64,000 nucleotides of DNA from Mustelus asterias (Eukaryota), in contig NC_135801.1 of NCBI RefSeq assembly GCF_964213995.1, forward strand, positions 111,848,001-111,912,000. The letters run 5' to 3'. Below the pieces are notes generated by a model that worked only from the letters and a program-made list of their open reading frames with translations, was not told the DNA's origin and did not search any database. Numbering within the stretch: the stretch's first letter is position 1; the number at the start of each line of letters is the position of its first letter. The position numbers and the translations under genes were made by a program. Positions 3,951 to 63,203 of the stretch are shown here, in pieces.

Positions 3951-4195
3951 ATAAAACCAGAAAATGCTGGGGAAACTCAACGGTTCTGGCAGCATCTGTG
4001 GAGTGAGAGTCAGAGTTAACATTTTGAGTCCAATATGATTCTTCTATAGAACTTTGGGAATTTCCAAAGAAGGATCATAGTGAACTCGAAACATTAATTC
4101 TGTCTCTCTCCAAAGATGCTGCCAGAACTGCTGAGTTTTTCCAGCATGTTCTGTTTTTATTTCAGATTTCCAGCATCCACAGTATTTTGCTTTTA
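3951..4195 (+). mobile_element. Penelope-like family B palindromic end (degenerate hammerhead)
   Basis: Inverted arms at about 3951-4045 and 4068-4160, then the tail ttcagatttccagcatccacagtattttgc. Related copies at 44376 and 46921. Confidence 0.7.
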
Positions 4196-10588: not shown

Positions 10589-12582
10589 TATATTGCACGT
10601 GCTCCCAAGTTGAGCTTCCCACCACATATCCACTCATCACTAAGATTGCCTATTTCTATCTGCAACATTGCCCATGTCTGCTCCTGTCTCAGATCATCTG
10701 CTGCTGAAATCCTCATCCATGCTTTTGTTACCTGAAAATTGACTTCCAAAGAAATCCTGTCCAGCCCTCATTTTCCATTCTTCCTAAAATTAAACTCTTC
10801 CAAGACTCTGCTGTCAAAATCCTAACTCTCATCAAATTTTGTTCACCGTACTCCTACATCGGCTCTCAGTTGAACAAAGCCTCCATTATTTTTAAAAGCT
10901 TATCCTCATTTTTAAATTTTTTCATGACCTCACCCTTTCCCATCTCTGTAACTTCTACCAACCCTACAATACTATCAGATAGACATAGATGTCCCATCGC
11001 ACTATTTTATAGAACATTAGTTCTCTTTGTATTTTGGCCAATATTTAAATCTCAAACAATATCATAAAAACAAATCATCTAATCTCTATCACATTTTTAT
11101 TTTTAGGTGTCTGCTGTGTGCAAATTGGCCAACTGTGGGTACACTTCTTTATAAGTACTTATTGGCAGCGGTGTGCTTTAGGGGGTCCTGAAAGATGTTA
11201 TATAAATGCAAGCTTTTCTTTGTAATATTTAAGGATGTAGGTTGGTTAATTTTGCTGTGATATTAGGAAGATGCCTTGTTTTCAGCAAATCCATACCATT
11301 TGCCTATATACACCATCTGGAAAGGATAAATAAATTATTGGAGCAGTCTTTAATTTAGAATGCTTTTGTTCCTCAAATGTGTCTGGTAATTTATTGTTTC
11401 AGAATGCTAAAGTAAACAGGAGTGAATCATTATTAAGGTACTTTTATTAGTTTTTACATGTTAAGAGTACAATGAGGCCACTACTTCAAATAATAGGGAA
11501 ACTTCAATTGCCAGAAATCTTAAAATAATAAAATACTGAGTCTAGATCATAAACTCACCAATATTCAGGAAAAGAAAAGTATCCAGTGCTGACAGTTAAG
11601 TTCTACATCCTAAGCTTTAACCACAATTGTGGTGAACATAGCATGTACTTCCATCATTTAGGCATTCACAGCTTTTTCTCGCAAAATGACTTCTTAGGTT
11701 TGTCACCTTGATTCAAACTTTACAACAGGTCTAGTTAACTGTGGCATAAAAGTAACTAACCCGGACTGAGAACTAGTTGCCGTGAATTTGACACAATACC
11801 GGTGGGATTGTCTGATCTCGTTTGTCCCATCCCCTCTGCCAGCAGGAATGGAGAATTTGGCACTCAGCCAAAGCTCCATTCACTACAGCAGCACCGGAGA
11901 ATCCTAGCTGCGGATGAGACCAGAGGTTTCCAGTGAATGTTTTTTGAGAACGGTAATTAATGAATTAATGATTAATTTTTTAAAAGTGATTTGTGAATAG
12001 GAAATTGTAGTTCTGCATCATTTCTTGGCAAGGGGGAAAAGGGGACAGATCGCTTGCTGTTCCAAATGCCTGTTAGGAGATGTACAGCAGAGGCTCAGCA
12101 ATGCTGATTTTCCATTTTTGCAGATAAATGTTCATTCTTCTCAGAAAACAAATCTGTGAGATGGGCATTTGGAGTCAAAGTGACCGTATGTTCGGTAAGT
12201 TGCCAACTATCTACAAAACACCGAGCTTGGCTGTATTTGGAGACTACTGTTGGAATCACTGATTTGTATTCCACCAATGCAGTGGTCCGTTCCTTGTCGG
12301 CGAGAAGGAAACAATTAGGACAAACAATATTGGTTACTCTTAAGGGTGGCATCAGCAGGGATGAGATCTAGAGGACTTGGGTTGACGGAATGGGCAGACG
12401 AAATTTAAGGCCGAGAAATGTGATAGGAAGAATGATGAGAGGCAATGTGAAATGATAAGATAACATTCTAAAGGAGGTGAAAAAACGGTCTGGGGTACAT
12501 TTGCACAAATATTTGAAGTCAAAATTACAAGTTGAAAAAACTATTAATAAGACCTGTGGTATCCTGGGCTTTTTAAATAGAG

Positions 12583-12735
12583 TAAGAAGTTTAACAACAG
12601 GTTAAAGTCCAACAGGTTTATTTGGTAGCAAATGGTGGCATTTGCTACCAAATAAACCTGTTGGACTTTAACCTGGTGTTGTTAAACTTCTTACTGTGTT
12701 TACCCCAGTCCAATGCCGGCATCTCCACATCATGA
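12583..12735 (+). mobile_element. Penelope-like family A palindromic end inserted in a CR1 relic
   Basis: Inverted arms (taagaagtttaacaac...tttggtagcaaatg / catttgctaccaaa...gttaaacttctta) plus tail. Flanked by ctttttaaatagag (12569-12582) and ctttataaatagag (12736-12749). Confidence 0.8.
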
Positions 12736-14145
12736 CTTTATAAATAGAGGCATAGAAATCAAAAACAAGGAGGGTTATGGTGAACCTTTATAAAGAAAAT
12801 TGGTTGCACTGCTAATGTTCAAATCCTCATCATGGTCATTTGTCCAACATTATCTTCTAGCCATGTAACCAAAGTTTATGATTTAGGGCTTTCCACCTAA
12901 AAGTTTAATTGTGTCTCAGTCGGGGCTATGAGCATGTGAGACAAGAAACTAAAAATGTGGCATAGTTGCGCAAAATATTACATGACATTGTTTCCTGCAG
13001 GTTTCTAACCCTGGTCAATGAAGTAGGTAGTGAAATAGTGAACAAACGGCATTATGAATGGCTAGATAAATCACAGAAACTCAGAACACACAAGCTAGCA
13101 AAGGATTAGGGAATGGCAGACTGAATATTCTGATCTTGATCCACCAATGCCAGGAGAACAAGTGTTGCTAGATAATGTTTTGACTGAATGAGGCCAAAAT
13201 ATGTGTTTTTATTTGAACTAACAGTAGAACAAACTTAACCCAAAGTATCCAATTTACAACACTGGCCACTAGCAGTTTGCTTTTGATTGTCATTTACATC
13301 ACAAAAGTGTAAACACCCAATCTGCTTCAACAACAGCATAAAGTTCAAATGTGCACACATAGAAAAAACAATATAAAAATATTTTATAAAATTACAACCA
13401 TCATATCTTTACATGGAATGTTACATTGCAGACATTTCTCAAATACCTTTGTTTAGAAATCATACAGGAGCAAAGTATATAGCATTATATTGTTGAAAAG
13501 TGCCATCACAGTGAAATATTTATTCCCACAGACTCAAACAGCAAGCTGCCACACAAAATTCCAAAGTGAATAAAAAGTGAGCTGAAACAAAACTTTGGCA
13601 TAAAAGAATAATTTTAGTTTGTTTGTTTAAAAAGTAGCAGGATGAGTAATACAGTAGCATAGAAAAAGTAAAACTGGAAAACTCACTTCACATTTGATGA
13701 GTACTGACACCACAGAAATAGAGCTCTTAAACAACTACAAATGAGCAGAGCGGGGAAAAGCCCGCAATTTAATTATTGTTGCCAAAAAAAATTATCAGGC
13801 TGTGAACTGATTTCCAAGTATGACCAGTCCTCTGAAGGAAAATCAACATTATACATTGGAAATCTTTAACAATGAAAATGATGAGACTCTCAACCCAATG
13901 GACAGTGAGGGTTCAAATGGCTGATGTCATAGAAAGTCCACATTTAAATCTAGTACACTGATCTCTATACAGTATGTTTTAATTTGATTTTTAATTCAAA
14001 CTTCATGAGGAAACAAGACTGTTCTTCTCTTGCTCAATCATAGAATCAAGTGCACTTCATTAATTTCTTTGTATGGTTGCATCCTACTTTAAAACTGAAC
14101 GAAACTGCAACATATACTCCATTGCAATGTATCATAACTGCAATC

Positions 14146-15438: not shown

Positions 15439-15615
15439 TTATAAAAAAGTGTGGATGTAGATCTGCCTCTCAATCCACTCAACAAAATGAGTTACATTGC
15501 TGTAAACACCAGGTCCAAGGAGTTTTGTAAAGCATACCGATCCCCAAGATGTTAGACCAAATAATGTCCATCTCTTGCCAGGCTGTTCACAAACCAGAGG
15601 TCCTCCACTGTCACC
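15439..15615 (-). CDS. CORIN: CORIN last coding exon (catalytic Ser, GDSGGP...QIYIHTFL*)
   Basis: ttggtcag| acceptor; 59 codons including [27 protein letters not shown] and GPGVYSNV match the corin C-terminus. Confidence 0.97.
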
Positions 15616-16317
15616 CTGACCAACAGAAAGACAATGATGTTCAGGCAATTGAAATAGATACTATTAGCACACCTACAAAAACACTTCCACTTTACCTAGT
15701 TTAAAACTCATTTGGTCTAACCAGTTCCTTAATGAATGGTCACATGTCCTGATCCTGCTGCTATTTGAGATTGTAACAGCTAAAAGGTACTGCTGGTATG
15801 TGGGTGCAAGATATTCTACTTATTTTATATGTTGTGTATAATTGGATTTGTTTTATTATTGTCACATGTATTAGCATACAGTGAAAAGTATTGTTTCTTG
15901 CACACTATACAGACAAAGCATACCGTTCATAGAGAAGGAAATGAGAGAGTGCGGAATGTAGTGTTACAGTCATAGCTAGGATGTAGAGAAAGATCAACTT
16001 AATGCAAGGTAGGTCCATTCAAAAGTCTGATGGCAGCAGGGAAGAAGCTGTTCTTGAATCGGTTGGTACATGATCTCAGACTTTTGTATCTTTTTCCCGA
16101 CGGAAGAAGGTGGAAGAGAGAATGTCTGGGGTGCATGGGATCCTTAATTATGCTGGCTGCTTTGCCGAGGCAGCAGGAAGTGTAGACAGAGACAATAGAT
16201 GGGAGGCTGGTTTGCATGATGGATTGGGCTACATTCACGACCTTTTGTAGTTCCTTGCGGTCTTGGGTAGAGCAGGAGCCATACCAAGCTGCGATACAAC
16301 CAGAAAGAATGCTTCCT

Positions 16318-16440
16318 TTACATTGCTGTAAACACCAGTTCCAAGGAGTTTTGTAAAGCATACCGATCCCCAAGATGTTAAACCAAATAATGTCCATCTC
16401 TTGCCAGGCTGTTCACAAACCAGAGGTCCTCCACTGTCAC
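16318..16440 (-). pseudogene. Duplicated 123-bp fragment of the CORIN last exon inside a Rex1 LINE
   Basis: Direct copy of 15492-15614 (offset 826) with 2 mismatches by eye. Lacks the authentic acceptor and the 3' end of the exon. Confidence 0.92.
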
Positions 16441-16617
16441 TTGGTAAAGAATCGTAGCTGACATGCCAAATTTCCTTAGTCTTCTGAGAAGGTAGAGGCG
16501 TTAGTGGGCTTTCGTGACTATAGTATCATCAACATAGGGGACCAGGACAGGTTGTCGGTGATCTGGACATCTAAAAACTTGAATCTCTCAACCCTTTCTA
16601 CTTCGTCCCCGTTGATG

Positions 16618-16746
16618 CACTCACCTGATGAGGGAGCGGTGCTCCGAAAGCTCGGGCTACCAAATAAACCTGTTGGACTTTAACCTGGTGTTGTGAGACT
16701 TCTTACTGTGCCCATCCTAGTCCAACACTGGCAACTCCACATCATG
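16618..16746 (+). mobile_element. Penelope-like family A 3' end with hammerhead core, inserted in a Rex1 LINE
   Basis: tcac-ctgatga-gggagcggtgctcc-gaaa-gctc plus the family body and tail. Interrupts the Rex1 sequence gttgatg|tagat. Confidence 0.8.
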
Positions 16747-18516
16747 ATGTAGATAAGGGCATGTTCTCCTCTAAGCTACCTGAAGTCGATGACAATCTCC
16801 TTCATTTTGTTGACATTGAGGGAGAGATTATTGTCGCTGCACCAGTTCACCAGATTCTCTCATTCCTGTACTCTGTCTCATCATTGTTTGAGATCTGTCC
16901 CACTACAGTGGTGTCGTCAGCAAACGTGAAAATCGAATTGGAGGGGAATTTGGCCACACAGTCATAGGTGTATAAGGAGTATAGTAGGGGGTTGAGAACA
17001 CAGCCTTGTGGGGCACCGGTGTTAAGGATGATCGTGGAGGAGGTGTTGTTGCCTATCCTTCCTGATTGTGGTCTGTGAGTTAGGAAGTTCAGGATCCAGT
17101 CGCAGAGGGAGGAGCCGAGGCCCAGGCCACGGAGTTTGGAGATGCGTTTCTTGGGAATAATGGTGTTGAAGGTTGAGCTGTAGTCAATAAATAGGATTCT
17201 GACATAGGTGTCTTTGTTATCTAGGTATTCCAGGATTGCGTGCAGGGCCAGGGAGACGGCATCTGCTGCAGACCTGTTGCGACGATAGGCAAACTGTAGT
17301 CCAGGTAGTCCGGAGGCTGGAATTGATTGGTGCCATGACTAGCCTTTCAAAGAACTTCATAATGATGGATGCCAGAGCCATCGGATGATAGTCATTGAGG
17401 CACGCTGCTTGTTTTTTCTTTTAGGTACCAGGATGATGGTCACCAATTTGTCGTTGTACAAGATGCTGCATGTGAGTATTCTCTATGCAACGATTATGGT
17501 ACAACCATAACATATGTTGAAACACCTGCACCCTAGAGAAAACATTATTTCATTGACAGCTTAGATTTTGATCTCTGCTGTCAATTTCACAATGTTTGCT
17601 TGCTATGTGGTTTCAAGGGTTTGTGGGTTTTGTTATTGACAGTCTAAAGGGTCGGGATGATTGTGACCCAACAAAGGAACTAGACGTGTCAATGACCTGA
17701 AAAGAAATCCAACACTATGTGAAGGCGTTAAAATCATTCAATGCAGTAGCTTTCCCCTGTGAATTGAGTACAGCACAGTCCCTGGGAAGCTGCTGTGAAG
17801 ATGTTTCAGTACATTTCGCACACTTGCAGATGGGCAGCACAAACAAGCTGACCAAGGAACGGCAGGTGAGAAATCTGATAACCACAAGTGGATTTCTGAA
17901 TGGTGCAACCATGCAGGCACACCTAGTTAGCAATGAATTGTTATAATTAAACAAGCATATAGAGGCTATAACTAGTTAACTACATTCACCTGATGTAAAT
18001 GAAGTAACCAGATAATAAATAACAACTAACTATTAGTTGTAGTTGGACATCAATGATTTCAGAACAAATATATACTTGTGATTGGTATATGCAAATTACT
18101 TCTAAGATAAGCAAAGATATAATTGTGCATGCGATATATCACTCAAAGAATATACGCCACCTTGTGGAAGGCAGACTCCCTTGCTATAGCATGAATAAAC
18201 GCCGATTTAAAACTCTGAAAGCTTTTCTGGTCTGTCAAGGGTGTGAGGTACAAGTTTGTGGGCTGGCGGTGAAATTCTGTATCACTGCATCAGGACTTTT
18301 TGGTTTTGCAGAAAGTCCATTTCAAACATAGCAAAAATAATAAAGACTGATGCAAGTCACAGGATTGGCCCTTCTGGAAACTACCACCAGCAATTGCAAG
18401 AACCAAAGAATTCCTCTCAGCCTGTGGAATCTCACACCTCATTGTATAGACCCTTTTTATAATTACAAAACCAAGGGATTCTCAGATCAAAACTTATTAT
18501 GCCTACAGAACAAGTG

Positions 18517-20281
18517 TTGAACTTACTTAACGGCATCTATTCCTGACCCTGTGTCTGTGACGCTTCTGGCTGGCAGACTGCAACAAACTGACTGCCTCAA
18601 GGAGAGCTGTTCACTGACCTTTGAGCTGATCCAGTGGGCCCTCAAAACACTCCCAGAGAGTCCCAATTTTGTTACTCGGCAGGAACCAATGTTGCAAGCA
18701 TTGAAACATCTTGGGAGGAATCTTACAAGAATTTATCAAAGTGTCAGTTGAGAAACCTGGCATGGAATTCTCCTGCTTCACCAGCCAGTTTTCTTTCCAG
18801 ATTTTGTCACTTAACTAGCAAAATAAGAGTGGGCGTGGTTTGTGCTGCCACTCAGGCGAGGAGGGGACTCTCCAAGCTGGGAACCAGCTCCAATGGGATC
18901 AGGGCACTGGAGGAAAAAAATGAAATTCTCCCCCACGGAGGCTTCTGTGGCCTTCGGCCTCCTTATCCCAGATCATCGCTTGCATGTCTGCTCTCCCTAG
19001 CACCACATATAAATGAGTACCCGCACATGAGGTTCTGCCTAGGGCCTACCCCTAGCCTGGCCTGTGGGCACAGGTTGGCACTGCCAGGTTAGGAATATGG
19101 CAGTGCCAACCTGTGCCAAGGAGCCGTGCTGACGAAGGGGCAGCACTCCGAAAGCTTATGGTATTTGCTACCAAATAAACCTGTTGGACTTTAACCTGGT
19201 GTTGTGAGACTTCTTACTGTGCTTACCCCAGTCCAACGCCGGCATCTCCACATACAGAACTGTTAACAGACTCATTTCACACCTAGAACTGTTCAGGTCC
19301 ATTTCAACAATGGACTATTCAAGGAAAAATGGATGATGTTTGCATCTGGTTAGCTACTGCTCCAGCAGAGTTAGAGGGTCTGTCTAGTTAAGGGGTTCTG
19401 TGGAAGGTTGCCAGGGATTCCACACCCAGGCCAGACAGATTGATATAATTTGAACTCCATGATGGGCGTGAGCCTGATTTTAATACATTTCAATAAACTT
19501 AAATATATTTATACACTCCGCTTGCCAAATTATCCCTCCTCATTAGATTTTCATACCTCTCTGACCCCAAATGTGAACCTGTCGTGGGGATCTTCCCAGG
19601 AGCGCAAAGGTCACTTTCGCCCCCAGGGGAGAGAGACATGACCAGGCAGTGCCCTGACATTGCCCCCAGCACGGCTCCTTGGCACAGGTTGGCACTGCCA
19701 TATTCCTAACCTGGCAGTGCCAACCTGTGCCCACAGGCAAGGCTAGGGGTAGGCCCTAGGCAGAACCTCATGTGCGGGTACTCATTTATATGTGGTGCTA
19801 GGGAGAGCAGACATGCAAGCGATGATCTGGGATAAGGAGGCCGAAGGCCACAGAAGCCTCCGTGGGGGAGAATTTCATTTTTTTTCCCCAGTGCCCTGAT
19901 CCCATTGGAGCTGGTTCCCAGCTTGGAGAGTCCCCTCCTCGCCTGAGTGGCAGCACAAACCACGCCCACTCTTATTTTGCTAGTGAAGTGACAAAATCTG
20001 GAAAGAAAACTGGCTGGTGAAGCAGGAGAATTCCATGCCAGGTTTCTCAACTGACACTTTGATAAATTCTTGTAAGATTCCTCCCAAGATGTTTCAATGC
20101 TTGCAACATTGGTTCCTGCCGAGTAACAAAATTGGGACTCTCTGGGAGTGTTTTGAGAGCCCACTGGATCAGCTCAAAGGTCAGTGAACAGCTCTCCTTG
20201 AGGCAGTCAGTTTGTTGCAGTCTGCCAGCCAGAAGCGTCACAGACACAGGGTCAGGAATAGATGCCGTTAAGTAAGTTCAA
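18517..20281. repeat. Large inverted duplication: arms 18517-19131 and 19667-20281, 535-bp spacer
   Basis: Mirror ORF pairs in the track share the coordinate sum 38798. Boundaries were read base by base; about 5 mismatches seen. Confidence 0.95.
19129..19253 (+). mobile_element. Penelope-like element 3' end (family A) with hammerhead core
   Basis: ctgacga-aggggcagcactcc-gaaa-gctt followed by ccaaataaacctgttggactttaacctggtgttgtgagacttcttactgtg and the tail cccagtccaacgccggcatctccacat, shared with other copies in the window. Confidence 0.8.
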
Positions 20282-20562
20282 AGAAGTGGGCAGAGAAATA
20301 GGCTCCAAATTAAAGAAGAGCTGCAGTTAGCAGACTGACTCTACTGTGTGTGTGGCTGGGGCAAAAGTACACTTTTGGAGCAGTGGTGTTCTGATTAGCA
20401 AGGATATAGATATGAAAGTGTGCTTATAAGCAAAAGTTGAATGTACTTGGGAATCCAGAAAGAAGGAATGATTAACATTGGGAATTTCAACACGTGTGAC
20501 TGATAGGACAGAAGAGGCCTTCCACAGCTAAAGTGGAAAAGGAGATTCAGTTTTGGAGAAAA

Positions 20563-20878
20563 GGGGTGGCACAGTGGTTAGCACCGCTGCCTCACAGCTC
20601 CAGGGACCCAGGTTCAATTCCAGCCTCGGCTCACTGTCTGTGTGGAGTTTGCACATTCTCCCTGTGTCTGCGTGGGTTTCCTCCAAGTGCCCCAGTTTCC
20701 TCCCACAATCCAAAGATGTGCAGGTTAGGATGATTGACCTTGGTAAATTGCTCCTTAGTATTAGGGGAACTAGCAGGGTAAATATGTAGGGTTACAGAGA
20801 TAGGGTCTGGGTGGAATTGTGGTCAGTGCAGACTCGATGAGCCCGGTGGCCTCCTTCTGCACTGTAGGGATTCTATGA
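20563..20878 (+). mobile_element. HE1/V-SINE
   Basis: Full head, V-domain and ggattctatg tail. Confidence 0.85.
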
Positions 20879-21635
20879 ATCTTGGAAGTGAAGATTGAAA
20901 CCCTGTGAGATGGACCTCTTAAAGTCATCCACGCGGGAGCAACTTTCAGAGAAAATTCCAAGGAGAGATCTTCAAAGGTGAAGCTGGGAATCTCTCTTGA
21001 GACAGAGAGTTTCAACGGGATTGTCTAATGTGGTATTTGATGATGTGTGAATGGATTCCTGTGAAATCTAAGGACTCTGTCTTGGTTGCATCTGTCCTTT
21101 ACTCTGTAGTATGGTGTCTTCAACCACTGTTCATCTGTTAATTCACCTTTACCTCAAATTTACCCTGAATGTTAAAGTATAAGATGCATATTGTAAACTG
21201 TTTTATCTTTCTGAACTTGCATGGTAAAGTTTATTTTTGTTTATTCAAAACCTGCGGGATCTTGTGGCTTTATTCCAAAAGCAGGTGACTTGAATCTCAA
21301 CCTCTATCTGCTTTAAACAAAACATTATTGGTCCCAAACCAGATCTTCCTCACGTCTAAGGGTCTGGCCAAGAATCATAAGGTCAAGTCAACAGAATCCC
21401 ATACACTCATTTTTATTGACAAAAGTACGAGTTATGGGCAGCACTTCAACTAAAGCCCTGAAATTTAAAGACTCCGTTACGCCTACCGCTGCCAATGAGA
21501 TTAAATAATTTTCACAAAGCTCAGTGCTTAAGTGTTTCTGAGTGCATGTTGGAATGATTTTGTTTCTAACCTGAACCTCGATGAACAAGTTAACAAAGTG
21601 ATTCATACAGAATTGGTCTTTATTAACCCGCTTAC

Positions 21636-38009: not shown

Positions 38010-38202
38010 AGTAAGAAGTCTCACAACACCAGGTTAAAGTCCAACAGGTTTATTTGGAATCACGAGCTTTCGGAGTGCTGCTCCTTCATCAAGTGAGCTC
38101 CGAAAGCTTGTGATTCCAAATAAACCTGTTGGACTTTAACCTGGTGTTGTGAGACTTCTTACTGCGCCCACCCCAGTCCAATGCCAGAATCTCCACCTCA
38201 TG
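38010..38202 (+). mobile_element. Penelope-like family A palindromic end
   Basis: About 75-bp near-perfect inverted arms around a truncated hammerhead, followed by the tail. Confidence 0.8.
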
Positions 38203-38897
38203 TCTTCCGACCAAAGAAGTTTAAATTATTCCCGGAACTTTCTAACGATAGGTCCAATTTGGAGACCAATACTGGATAGTATTTAATTGAAGGGTCATGT
38301 ATATGTTTGCAAAGAACTCAAGTGTCTTGTAGTATTCTAGATTATCAAAGTGTGACTTTATTGAATCATTTTCTTGAATATTACCTTCTTAGGGATGGGC
38401 AATAAATGCTGGTTTAGCCAGCACCTCCCACATCCCATGAAGGAATGAATAAATAAAAAATCATCTGAAGGGTATTTAGCAGGAATGTAAAGTCCTCAAG
38501 CTGCATTTATCGAGGGAATTTTCACAGTAACTTAATTGCAGTGTTAATGTAAGTCTACTTGTGACACAAATAAATAAATGAAAAAGATACCTTATCAGTT
38601 AGGACATATTCAATTCATTTTGATGGATAGAAGCTCAGGAGGCATTCACAGATACTGATTGGAATAAATAAATGAGGCAGCAGTTGTTGAATTCAGGGAG
38701 TACTGACAGTTCACAAACAATAGCATTGCCAGGTCACACACCTCAGAAAGCCAGGGCATGCATCCATTTTGAATTCTCTATTAGCCCAGCCATGTCTTTT
38801 CATTTGATTTAGTTTTCTTACATCAGTATCATTGAAGAGCTTTATAATGCTTTCTGAGTTTTCCACTCAAATCCATCACGTATTTTCTGGCTCTTAC

Positions 38898-39320: not shown

Positions 39321-39668
39321 TCATAGAATTCCTCCAGTGCAGAGGAAGGCCATTCAGCCCATCATGTCTGCACCGACTCTCTGACAGAGCATCTTACTCA
39401 GGTCCACCCTCTGCCCTATTCCAGTAACACCACATATTTACCCCGCTAAACCCCCTTTCCTTCACATCTTGAGACAGTAAGGGGCAATTTAGCACGGCCA
39501 ATCCACCTAACGTGCACTTCTTTGGACTGTGGGAGGAAACCAAAGCACTCAAAGGAAACTCATGCAGGCACAGGGAGAATGTGCAAACTTCACACAGTCA
39601 CCCAAGGCCGGAATCAAACCTGAGTCTCTGGCACTGGGAGACAGCAGTGCTAACCACCATGGCACCCC
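39321..39668 (-). mobile_element. HE1/V-SINE
   Basis: Reverse-complement full-length copy with CR1-type tail. Confidence 0.8.
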
Positions 39669-39752
39669 TTGGGCTGAATAATATGCTCACTCCCCTGGAA
39701 GTAGTGTCGGTATGGAGCTGACCTGTTCAATGCCAGCCCGCCCTGCAGCTAT

Positions 39753-40057
39753 GGGGCGGCACGGTGGCACAGTGGTTAGCACTGCTGCCTCACAGTGCCA
39801 GGAACCTGGGTTCGATTTCCGGCTTCGGTCACTGTCTGTGTGGAGTCTGCACGTTCTCCCCGTGTCTGCGTGGAGTTCCTCCAGGTGCTCTGGTTTCCTT
39901 CCACAGTCCGAAAGATATGCAGGTTAGGTGCATTGGCCATGCTAAATTCTCCCCCGGTGTACCCGAATAGGCACCGGAGTGTGGCAACTAGGGGATTTTC
40001 ACAATAGCTTTGTTGCAGTGTTAATGTAAGCCTACTTGTGACTAATAAATAAACTTT
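39753..40057 (+). mobile_element. V-SINE, alternative-tail variant
   Basis: ggggcggcacggtggcacagtggttagc head; tail gcagtgttaatgtaagcctacttgtgactaataaataaacttt. Confidence 0.85.
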
Positions 40058-43039
40058 ATTTTAATGTGCTGTGAGTGGGTCAATGTCTCTGACCAGCAGC
40101 TCCATCAGTCCCGGCAGCACAAAGAGTGCATCAGAGGCTGCTTCCAGGATTGCAACAAGAGGAAGAATGCCCATGGATCCCCGAACGGATCTTGGGCAGT
40201 GATGGTTTTGGCAGATCAAGGAGAGAGAGTTCTGTTTAAGTCTGCATGGGTTAGTAAGTGAAAGGCTTCATCATAGGTATGGGGTGAAAGTGGGAATATG
40301 GCATTGAAATAGAGGATCAGCCATGATCATATTGGTGGAGCAGGCTCAAAGGGCAGAATGGCCTACTCCTGTTCCTAGTTAATATGTTTCTATGATGCGC
40401 AAAGGCAGCCCTGATGCGCGAACCCTTCCCTTTCCTTCCCACCCTTTGATGAATGTAGTTTAAAAGAATCAGGCTGCCCACTCCCACCTGACTGCCTACC
40501 CTAAGCATTTTATGGCATTGGCAGTGTATTATCAGGGTCAACTGGCTTGGTAACAAGCCTGATTCACTCTTAGTTACCTATTTAAATATGGTAGGCAGAC
40601 TGCTGATTTATTATGGGGGTGAGTTTGGGGGTGGGTGCATAGGTAGTGGGGTGGGCACTCACCGGATTTTACATGCACCTTCACCCTGCCACCCACTCCC
40701 CACCCGCCCCCCCACCCCGCCCCCGCACCCCCTGCCAGAAACACTCAAAACAAGGAAATGTGAAATGCAGCCCCCTCCTCTTTTCCTAGAGTGTCATTTT
40801 TCCCAAGCAGTCCCAGTAAACAATTATCACACTCTAATCTGTCATAAAAGGTGGAATGATGTGCTCTTGTTAAGAGGTACTTGGCTAATTAGCAAGATTG
40901 CAGAATCACTGCATTTTCATTAACAGGAAAGTGGTGAGGCATATAATATCCAGTTGAAATGATTATTTTTGCATTTCTTTTAGTACAACTTTTTTTTTTT
41001 AAATGTCATCAATTTATTGTGCTTCCAATGAAGCCATTACAAGGGACATTCCAACAGGAAGAAAGACCACCAGCATCTTCAAGAGAGGGAAGATTGGTCC
41101 TCATTTCACAATCACCAGAATCCCCTCGGCTTTCCTTGAATAATTTTCTTTCCCATGTTACACTAATAGTATGAGAGGTCACACGACACCAGGTTATAAT
41201 CCAACAGGTTTATCTAAAATCACAAATCACTAATAGTAAATGTTGGTGTTGCATCAGCAAAAACAACTTCCAAGAATTACCAAAGGCCTTTCAATCATTT
41301 AAAGAGTTAAGAAGCATTTTTTAAATCTTCTTTTGATTGTGGAAACATTGGATCCTTTTCATTTAGGACATATCTAAGAAAAAAATATCGACTTTGCATT
41401 TCTTTTTTAGATGCCAAGTCAGGTTTTGGGCTGTGAGAAAACACTTCCACTTTGATATTGGTTGAGATGCTAACTTGTTAAACCTGGTAACTGTACAAAT
41501 TCTGAGCTTTCCCAGACAAGTTTCACTGGCACCAAGGAGCATTTAGGCATGATATTAGCTGCATCATGTATAGTATCAATAGCATAAATTGACAACTCTG
41601 CCATAGACTTACATTAATGGATGATGGTAAACTAAAACAAGCATACCTCCCTTTCCCAGGTCTGGATAATAAAGACTGCATAGACAAATCCAAAGTGAAA
41701 TTGCAACATTAGCTGCAAAGTGTTCTGTAAATGTCAGGATGCAACCTGTGAGCCGGGTAGGGAGTAGCGATTTATTAATCAGTAAAAGGGTGGCCTGCAA
41801 ATGACTGTATTTCAGAAAAATATACAGGCTTCCTTCATGGTTTCCAGATACAGGAGAAGGAGAAGGTTATCCATGACACAAATTGATAACAACATTTGAA
41901 ATGGACTGCAAAATACTCATTGAATTTTAAAATACTTTTGAAGAGTGATGACAAACAGTCCTTCTCCCAGGGTAAGGTTAGGATAGCTTAGCTATCTTCT
42001 ATTGGGCAAGCTCTGATTTAGAGGGTTGTCTTTTTAAGTAGTAGTACACTAATGTTAGGGCAACAACGTGGCCAACCTTAAATAGCGTGTTCCCTATTAC
42101 TGATAAGATTGTGTTGAAACAATATTTGTCGGCAGTACAGCAGGTCCTCTCCTTGTACAGAAAGAGAAATACCGGTCTTCTTAACAATGATTAAAATGAT
42201 CTTGATACAGAAATAGGGAATAACATTTGTTTCAGGATTAGTTGACAGATATTCACATAAGAAAAATTACCAATTACACAAGGTACTAAAAACCGGGTTG
42301 TACTACCAGACTCCAACAAACTTCAGCTCTTTCGAAACAGGAGAGAACAAAAAGAGAATGGGAGCTGGAGGGTAGGAGGTGGGGAGCCAGATGTACACAA
42401 CTAAATGTAGCAGACTGTGGAGACAATGTCCTGTGCTTGCTCATTCAGTACAGGTTCTAGAAACATTCTTCAAAGCTGCATTGCCCTCACTATCTATCAG
42501 TGTTAAAACATTCCTCCAAAACTTGGGTGCTTGCCCATCACTCCTTCAGAATGTTTTTATTGTTTGACAAATCCATCATAAATTGCAAGGTAATCTGTTT
42601 ACAGCTAGATAACACCCTCAACAAGCTCATGCTGCAACACATGATGTTTGAAAGTCAAAGTGAAGTCCTGGCACACGTCAGTCAGAGCTCAATAAGTACT
42701 TTCACCCAGTGCTCCTTCAAAGGCTTCTCATTTCTGCTTTCCCTACAGGGATTGATATTTGCTATTCTCACGTTGGACCCAGTGAGGGAATATTAATTTC
42801 AATTTCTGTATGGCTCCACAACTCAACTTTTCAGCATATTGTCAAAGTGGCCATTTTTTTTTAACCGCAAAGCAACTTTCAGTGAGTTCAAAAGATCCAT
42901 CATAAAGGAGCACTTATTATGTCAATCAACATATCTGGGTTAAACAGGTCAGATTACTGAGGATGAATTGCAAATGTATTTGAGTGCTGAAAGTGCCCCT
43001 TAGTCAAGAATCTCCAGTACTACAAGCTACTGACCTTAC

Positions 43040-44375: not shown

Positions 44376-44596
44376 AAAAACAAATTACTGCGGATGCTGG
44401 AATCTGAAATGAAAAGAGAAAATGCTGGAAAATCTCAGCAGGTCTGGCAGCGTCTGCAAGGAGAGAAAGGAGCTGACATTTCGAGTCCAGGTGACTTGAC
44501 TTGACAAAGGGTCATCTGGACTCAAAACATCAGCTCTTTTTTCTCCACCGATGCTGCCAGACCCGCTGAGATTTTTCAGCATTTTCCCATTTGGTT
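44376..44596 (-). mobile_element. Penelope-like family B palindromic end
   Basis: Inverted arms gaaaatgctggaaaatctcagcaggtctggcagc / gctgccagacccgctgagatttttcagcattttc, with the tail on the left. Confidence 0.7.
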
Positions 44597-54405: not shown

Positions 54406-54513
54406 CACATTCTTCCTCATCACTAAAATCATCACAGTCTGGTCGTCGATCACACCTTTTTGATGCCAAGACACATCTCCCTGAGTTGCATTTGAAATGG
54501 CTTGGGGAGCACT
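54406..54513 (-). CDS. CORIN: CORIN LDLR class A repeat 6 exon
   Basis: ttcacag| ... |gtaggt. [35 protein letters not shown]. Confidence 0.95.
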
Positions 54514-55835
54514 CTGTGAACAAAATATTGAATCATTCTGTAAATTCACTTTCACATGGACAATTTTAGATGCAGACAGGCTAATTTTTCAACCCATTCT
54601 TTCACTGCTTCATTACCATTAAATTATTGAGAATTTACTCTTGTGAATTTATAGTTAAAGGGGAAAATATAAACGGTGAAAAGTTATTTATATAAAATCA
54701 ATAATATTGAATAAGACCTACATCTTCCCCAGGTTTATTTGAGGCTACAAGGTATGAGGCTGACTTAATGAATAATTTACAACAGAATTTGGCTTTAAAA
54801 CATTTAAAAGGCTACTGGCTGTTCGCCTACTTCTACGATCATCCCACTGTGCCTTAGCCCATTGATTGCTGAAACTCATGCTTTTGTCAGCTCAGGACTG
54901 AGTGATTGCAATACTGTCCTGTTCAGCCTGAAGTCCTCCACCCTCTATGAACTTCAGCTTATCCATATTCCTCATCCCAAATCCTAACTCACAGCAAGAC
55001 TATTAATCCAGCACCCTGTGCTTGCTAACCTACATGGACTTCCAAATCCCCACAATTTGGAATTCTCACCCTTCTTTTCAAACCCCTTCATGATCATGAC
55101 CTCCAGCCTCGCAACTCTGCCAGAACTCTGTGTTCCTCCAACCTTGCCTCTTCGGCATTTCCTACTCCATTCACCCCACAGCTGCTCTATGTGCCATTAG
55201 CCATATAGAACAAAAGCTCTGGAATTATCCCACTAACCCTCTCCACGGCGCTCGCTTTCCCTTCCAGACCTTTCTTTAAACCTACATTTTTGATGAAGCT
55301 TCAGGTTACTCCTCCTAATGTGTTGTTCTATGGCTCTGATTACTGTGCAGTGCTTTGGATGTTTTAGTTTGTTATACAAATGCAAGTTGTTTGTTCAAAA
55401 GATGCAACCGCCAAGCTGAAGACAAGAGTCTAAGATGAACAATAATTGCGAGTTATTCTTGTTGCTGCAGTAAATATGATGTGAAGTGTCACAAGCTTCA
55501 TTTACAATTGATTGATCCCAGCAAGAGCAAGTATGATTGTATTAGTCAGAGGAAAATCAACAAGGTTTCAAACTTTCAATCCCATACCATGAGGTCCACC
55601 GGAAAGGATAGATGCCACTCAATTATCATCATCTTTATTTGGGCTATAATCTGGCAGTTTGCCTTCCTGCTATGAAACCTGTGTAACTTTCATTCCAATT
55701 TAAATCAATCTGAATTTCCAAAAGGCATTTTATAAGGTGTCATAAAAGTTAACTGTGTGCTGGTGATATAGTAACATGGATATAGGACTGGATAACTCAT
55801 AGGAAACAGGATAAGTCTGTAATTTTCAGGTCTGG

Positions 55836-56057
55836 CACAGTAAGTAGTCTCACAGCACCAGGTTAAAGTCCAACAGGTTTATTTGGTAGCACGAGCTTTC
55901 GGAGCGTTGCCCCTTCATCACCTGCTCCCCTTCATCAAGGGGTGGCGCTCCGAAAGCTTGTGGCTTGTGCTACCAAATAAGCCTGTTGGACTTTAACCTG
56001 GTGTTGTGAGACTTCTTACTGTGCTTACCCCAGTCCAACGCCGGCATCTCCACATCA
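55836..56057 (+). mobile_element. Penelope-like family A palindromic end
   Basis: Inverted arms with two disrupted hammerhead halves in the centre, followed by the tail cttaccccagtccaacgccggcatctccacatca. Confidence 0.8.
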
Positions 56058-56058
56058 C

Positions 56059-56370
56059 AGCATTTATTGCCCATCCCTAGTTGCCTGAGGGTAGTTGAGA
56101 GTCAACCATATTGCTGTGGCTCTGGAGTCACATTTAGGCCAGACCAGGTAAGGACAGCAGATTTCCTTCCCTAAAGGACATTAGTGAGCCAGGTGGGTTT
56201 TTTCGACAAACGACAATGGTTTCATGGTCATCGGTAGATTCTTAATTCCAGAGTTTTTTAAAAATTCGAATTCCACCATCTGCCATGGCAGGATTCGAAC
56301 CCAGGTCCCCAGAACATTAGCTGAGTTTCTGGATTAATAGTCTAAAGATAATACCACTCGGCCATCGTCT
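56059..56370 (-). mobile_element. tRNA-derived SINE with a LINE-derived tail
   Basis: Minus strand: tggccgagtggt (box A), gggttcgaatcc (box B); 3' end ggcaactagggatgggcaataaatgctg matches the LINE end at about 36846-36873. Confidence 0.75.
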
Positions 56371-57643: not shown

Positions 57644-59524
57644 AGAAGACACACTGTGTACCAAAGAAGCAAATCTGTGTGTTTCCCAGCTGGAAACCAT
57701 GGATGAACAGGGATATCCATTGCTTGCTGAAGTCCAGGTCTGAGGCGTTCAAATCAGGCAACCCTGACCTATACATGAAATCCAGATACGATTGACGGAG
57801 ATCCAGCAGAGATACCAAAAGACAGCACCGGACCAAACTAGAGTCCCAGGCTAGCCGCACAAACACCTATCGACTATGCCAAGGTCTGTAAGACATAATA
57901 ACTACAAGATGAAGGCATGTAAAATCGCCAGCTCCAACGCACCCCTCCCCGATGAGCTCACTGAATTCTATGCTCGTCTTGAGCCAGAGGTCAGCAAGAG
58001 CACACCTTCCGACCCAGAAGCCTCGGCAAACCCATATCCAAGGTCACCATCACAGACGTCAGATCAGCCTTCTTGAAAGTCAACCCACGGAAAGCGACTG
58101 GCCCAGATGCGGTACCCAGATGAGCACTCAGATCCTGCACAGACCAGCTGGTGGAGGTTTTCGCAGACATCGTTAACCGCTCTTTACACCAGTCTGAGGT
58201 CCCTATCTGCTTCAAGAAGATGACCATCATGCCTGTACCAAAGAAAAGCCAGGCAGCATGCCTTAATGACTATCGTCCGGTAGCTCTGACATTCATCATT
58301 AATGAAGTGCTTCAAAAGGTTAGTCATGGCACAAATCAATTCCGGTCTCCCAGATTACCTCCACTACAGTTTACCGATCACCACAACAGGGCTACAGCAG
58401 ACACCATCTCCCTGGCCCTACACTCAACTCTGGGACACCTGGATAACAAAGACTCCTATTTATTGATTACAACTCAACCTTCAACATCATTATTCCTGCA
58501 AAACTCATCTCCAAACTCCACGGCCTGTGGCTCAGCACCTCCCTCGGCAACTGGATCCTAGAATTCCTAACAGACCGCAATCAGTAAGGATAGGCAACAG
58601 CACCTCCTCCACGATCATCCTCAACACCAGTGCCCCACAAGGCTGTTTCCTCAGTCCCCTACTATACTCCTTATGCACCTATGACTGCACGGTAAAATTC
58701 CCCTCCAACTCAATTTTCAAGTTTGCTGACAATACCACGTAGTGGGTCAGATCTCAAACAATGACAAGACAGAGTACAGGAAAGAGATAGAGAATCTGGT
58801 GAACTATTGCGACATCCTTAATCTCTCCCTCAATGTCAGCAAAATGAAGGAGATAGTCATCGATTTCAGGAAGCGTAGTGGGGGACATGCCCCTATCTAT
58901 GCCAATAGGGATGAAGCGGAAATGGTCAAGAGCTTCAAGTTTCTAGGTGTCCAGATCACCAACAACCTGTCCTGGTCCCCCCATGCCAACACTATAGTGA
59001 AGAAAGCCCCCCAACTCCTCTACTTTCTCAGGAGGCTAAGGAAATTTGGCATATCTGCTACAACTCTCAACAACTTTTACAGATGCACCATAGAAAGCAT
59101 TCTTTCTGGTTGTATCAGTTTGGTCTGGCTCCTGCTCTATCCAAGACTGCAAGAAACTACAAAGGGTCTTGAACACGCAAAACACTTCCCACAGCCTCAG
59201 AAAAGCAGCCAGCATAATCAAGGACCCCATGCACCCCGGACATACTCTCCTCTATCTTCTTCTGTCGGGAAAAAGATGCAAAGGTCTGAGGACGCGTGCC
59301 AACCGACTCAAGAACAGCTTCTTCCCTGCTGCCATCAGATATTTGAGTGAATCTACCTCATATTAAGTTGATTTTTCTCTACACCCCAGCTATGACAGTA
59401 ACACTATATTCTGCACCCTCTCTTTTTCTTCTCTATGTACAGTATCTTTGTCTGTATAGTGCACAAGAAACAATACTTTTCACTGCATATTAACACATGT
59501 GACAATAATAGATCAAATCAAATC
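57644..59524 (+). mobile_element. Rex1/Babar-type LINE, 5'-truncated and frameshifted
   Basis: ORF fragments CLNDYRPVALT, APQGCFLSPLLYSL.T.DC, KFADNTT, FLGVQITNNLSW and LKNSFFPAAIR; ends in (atcaa)n. Confidence 0.85.
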
Positions 59525-60956: not shown

Positions 60957-60998
60957 GGTGTAGCTAGTGTTAACCTGGTGTTGTTAAACTTCTTACTG
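60957..60998 (+). mobile_element. 42-bp Penelope family A micro-insertion with 12-bp direct repeat
   Basis: ttaacctggtgttgttaaacttcttactg flanked by agtcaagaatct at 60945-60956 and 60999-61010. Confidence 0.75.
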
Positions 60999-63203
60999 AG
61001 TCAAGAATCTATCCAGCTGCCTTAAAATCACTTAATAATCCTCTCAAGGGAAGAGAGAAAACATTTCTCCTCATCTCTATGTTAAATGGGAGATCCCTTA
61101 TTCTTGAACAGTGTCCCTTCATTCCAATTTCTCCCACATGGAAAAAATCCTTTCAGCGTTCACTCTGTGAAGCCACTGCAGAATCTTAAATGTTTCAAAA
61201 GATCACCTTTTAATTTTCTAAACTCCAATGAATAGAGGCCCAAAGCATCCAATCTTCCTCTTAGGATAATCCCTTCATCTCAGGGATCAGTGGAGTGAAC
61301 CTTCTCTGAACTGCTTCTATTGTAATTATGTCACTTCTTTAATAAAGAGACCAAAATTGTACACAATGCACAGTGGTCTCACCAATGCCCTGTACAACTG
61401 TCGTAAGCCATCCCCACTTTTATATTCCATTAAACAATAAATAACAACATTCCATTTGCTTTCCTAATCACTTGCTGCACCTACATACTAACTTCTTCAT
61501 TGATGATTCATGTACCAGGACACCCAGATCTCTCTGTACCTCAGTGTTCCGCAATCTCTCTCCATTTAGATCATACGCTGCTTTTTAATTCTTCCTGCCA
61601 AAGGGGACAAGTTCACTTTCTCCCACATTATATTCGATCTTCCAAATTTTTGCACACTTAACCTATCTATGTCCCTTTGCAGATCCATTATGTCCTCTTT
61701 ACTACTTACTTTCCTACCTTTGTGTCATCTGCAAATTTAGCAACTGTACATTTGGTCCCTTCATCCACATCATTGATACAGATTGTAAATAGTTCAAGTC
61801 CCAGCACTGATCCCTGTGGCACTCCACTCACTACATCTTGCTAACCTGAAAATGATCCATTTATGACTACTCTCTATATCCTGTTAGCTAATGAATCTTC
61901 TATCCATGCTCATATTTATCCTCTACACAGTGAGTTCTTATCTTGTGCAGTTACCTTTGATTTAGCACCTTATCAAATGTCTTCTGGAAATCAAAGTACA
62001 CCACATTCACAGATTTTCCTGTATCTACGCCATTTCCTCAAAGAATTCTAATAAATTAGTCAAGCATGACTTCCCTTTCACAAAACCCTGTAGACTTTGC
62101 ATGATTACATTGGCATTTTCTAAGTACCCAGCTACAGTCTCCTTATTAATAGATTCTGACATTTTCCTTATGACAGATTTTATGCTAACTGACCTGGAGT
62201 CTCCTGCTTTTTGTCTCCCTTCTTTCTGGAATAATGGAGTTACATTCACTATTTTCCAAGCTGGTGTGACACTTCCAGAATCTGGGGAATTTCGGAAAAT
62301 CAAAACAAATGCATCTACTATGTCAACAGCCACTTCTTTTGAGACCCTAGAATGAAGTCCATCATGCCCTGGGGACTTGTCAGCTTTTAATTCGAATAAT
62401 TTTCTCAGTACCTTTTCCCTGATGATTGTAATTATTTTAAGTTTCTCCCTCTCCTTAACTTCTTGATATTTGTGAGATGTTATTTGTACCCTGTAGAATG
62501 AAGATAGATGCAAAATATCTGTTCAATTCATCTGTCATTTCCTTATTTTCCATTATTAATTACCCTGACTCATTTTCTAGAGAACGTTCACTTTACTTAG
62601 TTTTCCATTTTAAATACCTGTAGAAACTCCGACTATATTTTTTATTTCTACCTATCTTTCTCGTGTATGCTAATTTCTTCTGCCATATTATCCGCTGTTG
62701 TTACCAATCTTCTGTTCTGATCCTACTCTTCGCAGAATTGTATGTGTTTCTTGCAATTTGATACTATTTTTAACTTCCTTAGTTAACCAAGGCTGTGCCT
62801 CTTTCTCCAAAGGCCTTTCTTTTTCACTGGAATATATATTTGCTGAGTATTAGGAAACATCTCCTTAAATGTCTGCCACCACATTTCTATTGGCCTATTT
62901 CTTAACCTAATTTCCCAATCTTCAAAATCTCATAATTGACCCTATTTAACTTTAAAAAACTATCTTCGACCCATTCTTCTCTCCCTCAAATTGAAAATGA
63001 AATATCATGTTATGATCACTGCCACCTAGAGGCTATACCGTGAATTAATTAATTAATTCTGTTAGTCTCATTGTACCAGATCCAGAATAACCTGTTCTCT
63101 AGTTGGCTGTAGAATGCGTTGGTCTGAGAAGCCATCCCAAATGCACTTCGTAAACTCACCTTCCAGGCTACCCTTTCCAATCTGATTCATTCAATCTATA
63201 TCA

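Follow-up and report, generated by a model that had tools for sequence, protein, structure and literature searches.

L1 insertions with local inverted duplications have been published, and in the text accessible from this literature they are mostly somatic and affect the upstream side. Two reports (bioRxiv 10.1101/2024.12.14.628481; PMC11702581) describe, in their accessible portions, somatic human L1 events in which the retroelement is joined to inverted target-site DNA, the target-site duplication is kept, and short microhomology is found at the fold-back; the two inverted duplications described there are on the reciprocal end and have small hairpins. For L1, the same portions also propose that resected ends anneal to themselves, among them a cDNA end following 6271 bp of resection. 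Nam et al. (PMC10191854), as far as the accessible text extends, describe a somatic L1 "foldback inversion" with inverted duplication of the flank as an optional last step (three events plus one combined, 0.3% and 0.1%), in which 52 to 220 bp upstream of the target site are duplicated. Chimeras of L1 with RNAs are treated in the available part of PMC13174262, and general background is given in that of PMC6155905.

Among Penelope-like elements, canonical Penelope/Poseidon insertions are described in the accessible parts of three reports (PMC8557442, PMC3846280, and PMC11167929) as having a minimal hammerhead, 5' truncation, duplications of 8 to 12 bp, and a tail, and as forming head-to-head inverted copies in which the inverted partner is element sequence. 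In rotifers, Penelope insertions with captured host DNA, a short duplication, and an empty allele are known, but in those cases pseudo-LTRs enclose the host sequence, which was carried to a new locus, and the available portion of the report describes no inverted copy of the target's own flank (PMC3846280). The completion of Penelope-like insertions and the building of their inverted structures are described as unresolved in the accessible text of PMC8557442 and PMC11167929. We found no Penelope insertion with an inverted flank duplication in the literature searched, which covered mainly the main text of open-access papers.

Within a 64-kb stretch of shark DNA, referred to here as the window, we analyzed an insertion of 749 bp that consists of a 5-nt filler, a 615-bp inverted copy of DNA situated 0.4 to 1.0 kb downstream, and a 124-nt Penelope-like 3' end, flanked by copies of TACAGAAC. 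By analogy, the locus would work like the L1-associated fold-back duplications, from which it differs in element class, side, and length: here it is the end bearing the cDNA that carries the duplication, the loop measures 0.5 kb, the duplicated 615 bp come from downstream, and the insertion, of a Penelope-like element, was inherited. It shares with canonical Penelope/Poseidon insertions the hammerhead, the truncation, the short duplication, and the tail, and head-to-head inverted copies are also present at other loci in the window; in contrast to these, however, the inverted partner here was copied from host DNA at the insertion site.

The two arms (Table 1) are reverse complements with 5 mismatches in 615 nt (at 18640, 18813, 18911, 18913, and 19059), no indels, and a spacing of 535 nt, and no third copy of the arm was found within the 64-kb window. 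The 8-mer TACAGAAC occurs on the plus strand of the window only at the two sides of the unit, and the chance of finding it no more than 11 positions from a given point is about 2e-4. CTG is common to the left arm and the element; upstream of it, the family continues with letters other than those of the arm, its loose-end consensus ending in CCACTCCAT, and the exact microhomology is therefore 3 nt. The inverted arms, the flanking 8-mers, the filler, and the shared CTG had been claimed in the initial annotation, as had a perfect 20-bp hairpin in the arms, and all of them were confirmed, the hairpin in both arms. The T at 19253 is included in both the family end and the duplication. At the outer end of the arm, GAAC recurs 2 nt inside, which may constitute a 4-nt annealing site. 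A further AAGTG at 20284-20288, 3 nt past the end of the donor, was rejected as the source of the filler because its strand is unfit for simple read-through, and two 155-amino-acid open frames in the arms were taken as chance.

Positions 17500-19660 were compared, at 88% likeness, with the assembled contigs of four of 15 sequence runs, X1 and X3 from organism A and X4 and X5 from organism B. X3 is a second sample of the study that gave X1, X5 comes from a study other than that of X4, and sample S1, the source of run X1, may be the assembly's own source. A 2162-nt contig of organism B (X4 record 17; depth, 2.5) carried the arm at letters 299-908, positions 19660-19253 at letters 915-1312, and positions 18503-17793 at letters 1313-2024. 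Window position 19253 runs into 18503 with no letters between, and the contig has one TACAGAAC and one arm, at the position of the right arm, which is the empty allele that had been predicted. This reading was made from the positions of the contig pieces, and the joint of 18503 with 19253 is not among the joints listed. Run X5 has many substitutions and a 10-bp gap in common with this contig; its arm depth was 9.1, versus 9.05 to 9.9 for the longer flank pieces, and its record 28, which begins with 87 letters of unlisted position before 19253, is compatible with the empty site and was left out of the count. No orthologue with both arms but without the Penelope end was seen in these runs.

Table 1. 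Positions in the window of the insertion, its donor, and the host intron
Feature	Position	Strand	Remark
Last intron of CORIN-like protease gene, containing both arms	15616..21635	-	
Left copy of 8-bp target-site duplication TACAGAAC	18504..18511	+	Organism B has a single copy
Outer-junction filler AAGTG, 5 nt	18512..18516	.	Bridged by X1 record 4 and X3 record 11
New arm, inverted copy of 19667-20281	18517..19131	-	Missing in organism B
CTG microhomology	19129..19131	+	Common to arm and element
5'-truncated Penelope-like 3' end with tail, antisense to host gene	19129..19253	+	
Right copy of target-site duplication	19253..19260	+	
Original host DNA from target site to donor, 406 nt	19261..19666	.	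Contiguous with 18503 and arm in organism B
Original arm, donor of the copy	19667..20281	+	Single-copy there in organism B
Pre-existing 20-bp hairpin, copied to 19067-19117	19681..19731	.	Part of dispersed repeat

In organism A, the left junction was bridged by a 128-nt contig of X1 (18419-18546; depth, 14.7) that reaches 30 letters into the arm and 35 letters past the duplication, and by X3 record 11, which covers 18415-18602; neither contains any other letters. The arm contigs of X1 had depths of 28 to 31.6, versus 11.7 to 14.7 for the flank contigs, and the insertion appears to be homozygous in sample S1. Collapsed contigs of X1 mix letters of the left and right arms and were not used as evidence, because assemblers merge such bubbles. 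Among the matches listed, no contig of organism A crosses the arm-to-element junction or the element's 3' junction, for both of which the window assembly is the only source. The bin 19325-19397 had no cover in X1 and X3, a contig hole that proves nothing. Short parts of the arm match other repeats elsewhere, and parts match other genomic pieces at 88% or more, with depths of up to 458; in X1, the bin 18960-19032 had a depth of 28.1, which equals the locus alone.

The arms differ from one another by 0.8% (5/615; 95% interval, 0.3 to 1.9%), compared to 3.1% between the window and organism B (19/615; interval, 1.9 to 4.8%; Fisher p = 0.006), which suggests that the copy is young. At 18640 and 19059, the two arm differences for which a letter is listed, organism B has the letter of the right arm. 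Together, these comparisons indicate that the left arm is the copy and that it is younger than the split of the two organisms, unless conversion between the arms hid older differences.

The 20-bp hairpin is older than the insertion event. The bin 19033-19105, which holds the hairpin region, had a depth of 1182 in X1, versus 28 in the neighboring bin, and the hairpin region thus belongs to a dispersed repeat. Both the hairpin and the donor's inner breakpoint fall within an older dispersed repeat (19617-19749 and 19033-19117) in which GGCACTGCC-type palindromes are frequent, and the region 19660-19740 folds as DNA with -30.3 kcal/mol. A mir-1420 precursor was considered and rejected in favor of a repeat-derived hairpin (Rfam score of 37.9 bits versus a gathering cut-off of 70). 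The hairpin was likewise rejected as a terminator of synthesis because it sits at the start of the copied piece.

The element copy contains a minimal type I hammerhead core at 19129-19157 that lacks the 5' strand of helix I. The pattern (CUGANGA, one extra base, a G10.1-C11.1 helix II, GAAA, and a palindromic remnant of helix III) is also present in three of five other family copies tried, two of them with an altered first core base, and the accessible text of PMC4209133 describes this minimal form for Penelope-like elements. Rfam hammerhead models gave no match at E values of up to 1. The missing strand was removed by the junction of arm and element: the family's upstream letters end in CCAT, which would pair with the ATGG that follows the cleavage site. 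The 3' end lies 117 to 118 nt from helix II, compared to 111 to 118 nt in the anole element. Loose ends of the family concentrate at 19218-19221 and 19251-19253 in the four runs, among the matches listed, and inverted copies in the window end near 19218-19222; the two ends would match the optional 30- to 40-bp tail that is traced to two internal reverse transcription start sites in the available part of PMC11167929. Since the family could not be connected with a reverse transcriptase or endonuclease frame, the element is filed as Penelope-like by its RNA motif and anatomy and is placed in no clade.

We propose that the locus arose in one retrotransposition event in which the end of the cDNA folded back onto its own downstream strand, and we assign this reading a probability of about 0.6; single-event routes, taken together, are highly probable. 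That one retro-insertion copied flanking DNA in inverted orientation had been put forward in the initial annotation, and it is supported by the empty site and by the presence of both parts inside one duplication. The element has plus-strand sense; its cDNA is thus bottom strand, primed by the downstream flank's bottom strand and continuous with it. Past the 3' end of the cDNA, the insert reads as the top strand of the donor, and the template therefore corresponds to bottom-strand sequence 406 to 1021 nt downstream of the nick. By this geometry, the donor is on the strand covalently attached to the cDNA, in the orientation that fold-back gives.

In the proposed course of events, staggered nicks 8 nt apart would have opened the target site, as the duplication implies. 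The bottom-strand 3' end of the downstream flank would then have primed reverse transcription at the tail-bearing start site, as in published Penelope biochemistry, and about 124 nt of cDNA would have been made before a stop at the hammerhead core. If the break stayed open and resection removed more than 1 kb of the top strand downstream, the 3' end of the cDNA could have folded back onto the bottom strand to which it was attached, by then single stranded, at a point 406 nt away, with 19261-19666 as the loop; pairing there via CAG and further short matches would have allowed a DNA-dependent polymerase to extend it by 615 nt. The new end would have joined the upstream 3' overhang via the 4-nt GAAC match and a few filler bases, and top-strand synthesis would have opened the loop and closed the gap, with the duplication preserved.

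Beyond CAG, the cDNA end can pair imperfectly with 19661-19666 and 19647-19651, through TGCCCC and 5 nt more. Ranked by intermolecular pairing among the 38 CAG sites in 19300-20500, the priming site was the best one with a primer length of 14, 16, 20, or 25 nt; at 30 nt it placed second and at 12 nt eighth. When intramolecular folding was permitted, it ranked 7, 1, 2, and 2 of 38. Over 3 kb, its ranks were 11, 1, 3, 1, 1, and 2 of 70. The match was seen by eye before testing, so the rank is only suggestive of a real priming site. Several points count against fold-back: the stable hairpin 12 nt after the priming site would need to be opened, the depth of the empty-site contig is only 2.5, L1 inverted duplications are described in the accessible literature on the upstream (reciprocal) end and not on this side, and there is one locus only.

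From the sequence, a DNA template and a pre-mRNA template of the same strand would be expected to give an identical product at this locus. The host pre-mRNA is the same strand as the bottom-strand template, so that a reverse transcriptase that departed from its own RNA at the hammerhead core, switched to the host pre-mRNA as this was being transcribed, and copied 615 nt of intron would yield what is observed. Such a jump, which we regard as possible but unlikely, needs no resection, and the CTG microhomology would serve it equally. The pre-mRNA of the minus-strand gene is the exact template strand, which under the DNA model is a 1-in-2 coincidence. One L1 insertion with co-inserted nearby pre-mRNA is reported in the accessible text of PMC10191854, and the anole Penelope enzyme, according to the available part of PMC11167929, starts internally on RNA without homology. 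However, a jump of this kind requires that the gene be transcribed in germ-line or early embryonic cells when the insertion occurs, the published L1 case is a single event, and the copied piece starts just 406 nt beyond the nick, as would be expected of a DNA strand tethered there.

Two further histories are less likely than either fold-back or a jump onto pre-mRNA. One, to which we give little credence, is that an ordinary insertion was followed by a later break on its 5' side that was repaired from local DNA, the first insertion having possibly carried the family's head-to-head inverted copy, a fragile palindrome. A self-inverted copy is present at three of the seven family loci in the window, and the same intron holds a locally templated insertion with no element at its ends (16318-16440), from which it follows that repair synthesis alone makes such copies here. 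Nevertheless, the arm fills the space from the left duplication to the element to within 5 nt, the duplication is intact, no recognizable remnant of a self-inverted copy is left, organism B lacks both the arm copy and the element, and no intermediate allele was found in the four runs, among the matches listed.

The other, which we consider more doubtful still, is that at 20277-20280 the top-strand 3' end of the upstream flank invaded the duplex downstream, or an antisense RNA, that 615 nt were copied leftwards, and that the product then annealed to the cDNA, as the host-DNA counterpart of the second priming from which the family's own inverted copies probably arise. The GAAC at the primer end matches just inside the outer end of the arm, the anole enzyme cleaves and extends both strands in vitro (accessible part of PMC11167929), and family ends without the last 32 to 35 nt are abundant (loose ends at 19218-19221, among the matches listed). 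Priming from upstream would, however, need the downstream top strand to be single stranded, and this is the strand that 5' resection removes; moreover, the outer match is 4 nt plus filler, whereas the inner junction has the better annealing rank.

Although tandem and inverted Penelope structures trouble assemblies (accessible text of PMC8557442), S1 may be the source of the assembly, and parts of the arm recur in the genome at high depth, it is very improbable that the left arm is a misassembly or that the arms are terminal inverted repeats of a dispersed multicopy element, since two samples have contigs across the left junction and the depth of the arm is double that of the flanks, and the five arm differences, the locus-level depth of bin 18960-19032, and the absence of a further arm copy in the window likewise speak against both. 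A DNA transposon or MITE with long terminal inverted repeats was rejected on the same bin depth and because one arm predates the other.

Because the empty site is verified and the sequence at the 5' junction is unique, the primer, the template position, and the junction letters can be read directly at this locus, which is impossible where the inverted partner is element sequence. The allele suggests that Penelope insertions go through a stage with an open break that can be resected, as has been argued for L1, and that the outcome can be inherited, and it offers one way for a 600-bp inverted repeat to arise in a gene; as this is a single locus, its weight is modest. The product is most likely a neutral by-product. 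A broader conjecture, which we consider improbable, is that the Penelope enzyme, a relative of telomerase, often extends its cDNA on any nucleic acid by the nick, making long intronic inverted repeats routine. If so, the nucleic acid adjacent to the nick would be nascent host pre-mRNA or resected DNA, the family being very abundant in the shark, and host-derived arms would allow one to read how the 5' ends of Penelope copies are resolved.

The window contains seven family loci; at the six other than the focal one, no matching local copy was found at the ends. Shared flanking words of 9, 8, 11, and 12 nt occur at four of the seven loci and one of 7 nt at another, with none at two. At the loci with head-to-head inverted pairs (12574-12740, 38010-38206, and 55834-56060), the inverted copy lacks the tail, that is, the last 32 to 35 nt. 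Two single short copies, at 41174-41225 and 60970-61001, have flanking repeats of 11 and 12 nt, and another copy, at 16620-16747, is inside a LINE-like fragment. Opposite-strand family ends were joined at 19221/19253 in at least 29 contigs of X1 and at least 28 of X5, and family ends were also joined in tandem via a 30-nt linker (19253-19129), which suggests that the family forms a short tandem unit (about 155 nt) and inserts into copies of itself. A 31-nt family pattern did not match any of the metagenome or viral contigs searched.

The host gene is on the minus strand and has LDLa-like motifs at 54454, 46352, and 45073, and all four exons tested matched Pfam Trypsin, in order, on that strand. 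Searches of PDB and Atlas with the protease peptides gave generic trypsin-family matches only and no gene name; from its peptide sequences, we provisionally take the gene to be CORIN. No exon was found between the two arms. In the pre-mRNA, the arms could base-pair into a long intronic stem and serve as an editing substrate; the calculated energy of the duplex is -1318 kcal/mol, and its longest perfect run is 172 bp.

The copy at 16318-16440 is a second locally templated insertion in the last intron. It is a direct copy (123 bp; 98% identical) of the start of the last coding exon (source, 15492-15614), begins 1 nt inside the exon, and is situated 0.83 kb from its source within an old LINE-like fragment, with a short match to the LINE at one end; a LINE homologue at 58221-59523 does not contain the 123 bp. 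The copy is preceded by AG on the strand of the gene, and splicing to it would be expected to put a stop codon directly after the previous exon. Beyond the 3' end of the protease gene, a 191-amino-acid open frame on the plus strand (2054-2629) may be an exon of a neighboring gene. Other palindromic elements in the window are two related hairpin-like repeats of about 200 bp (3951-4160 and 44412-44592) and two SINE-like copies in inverted orientation (39321-39948).
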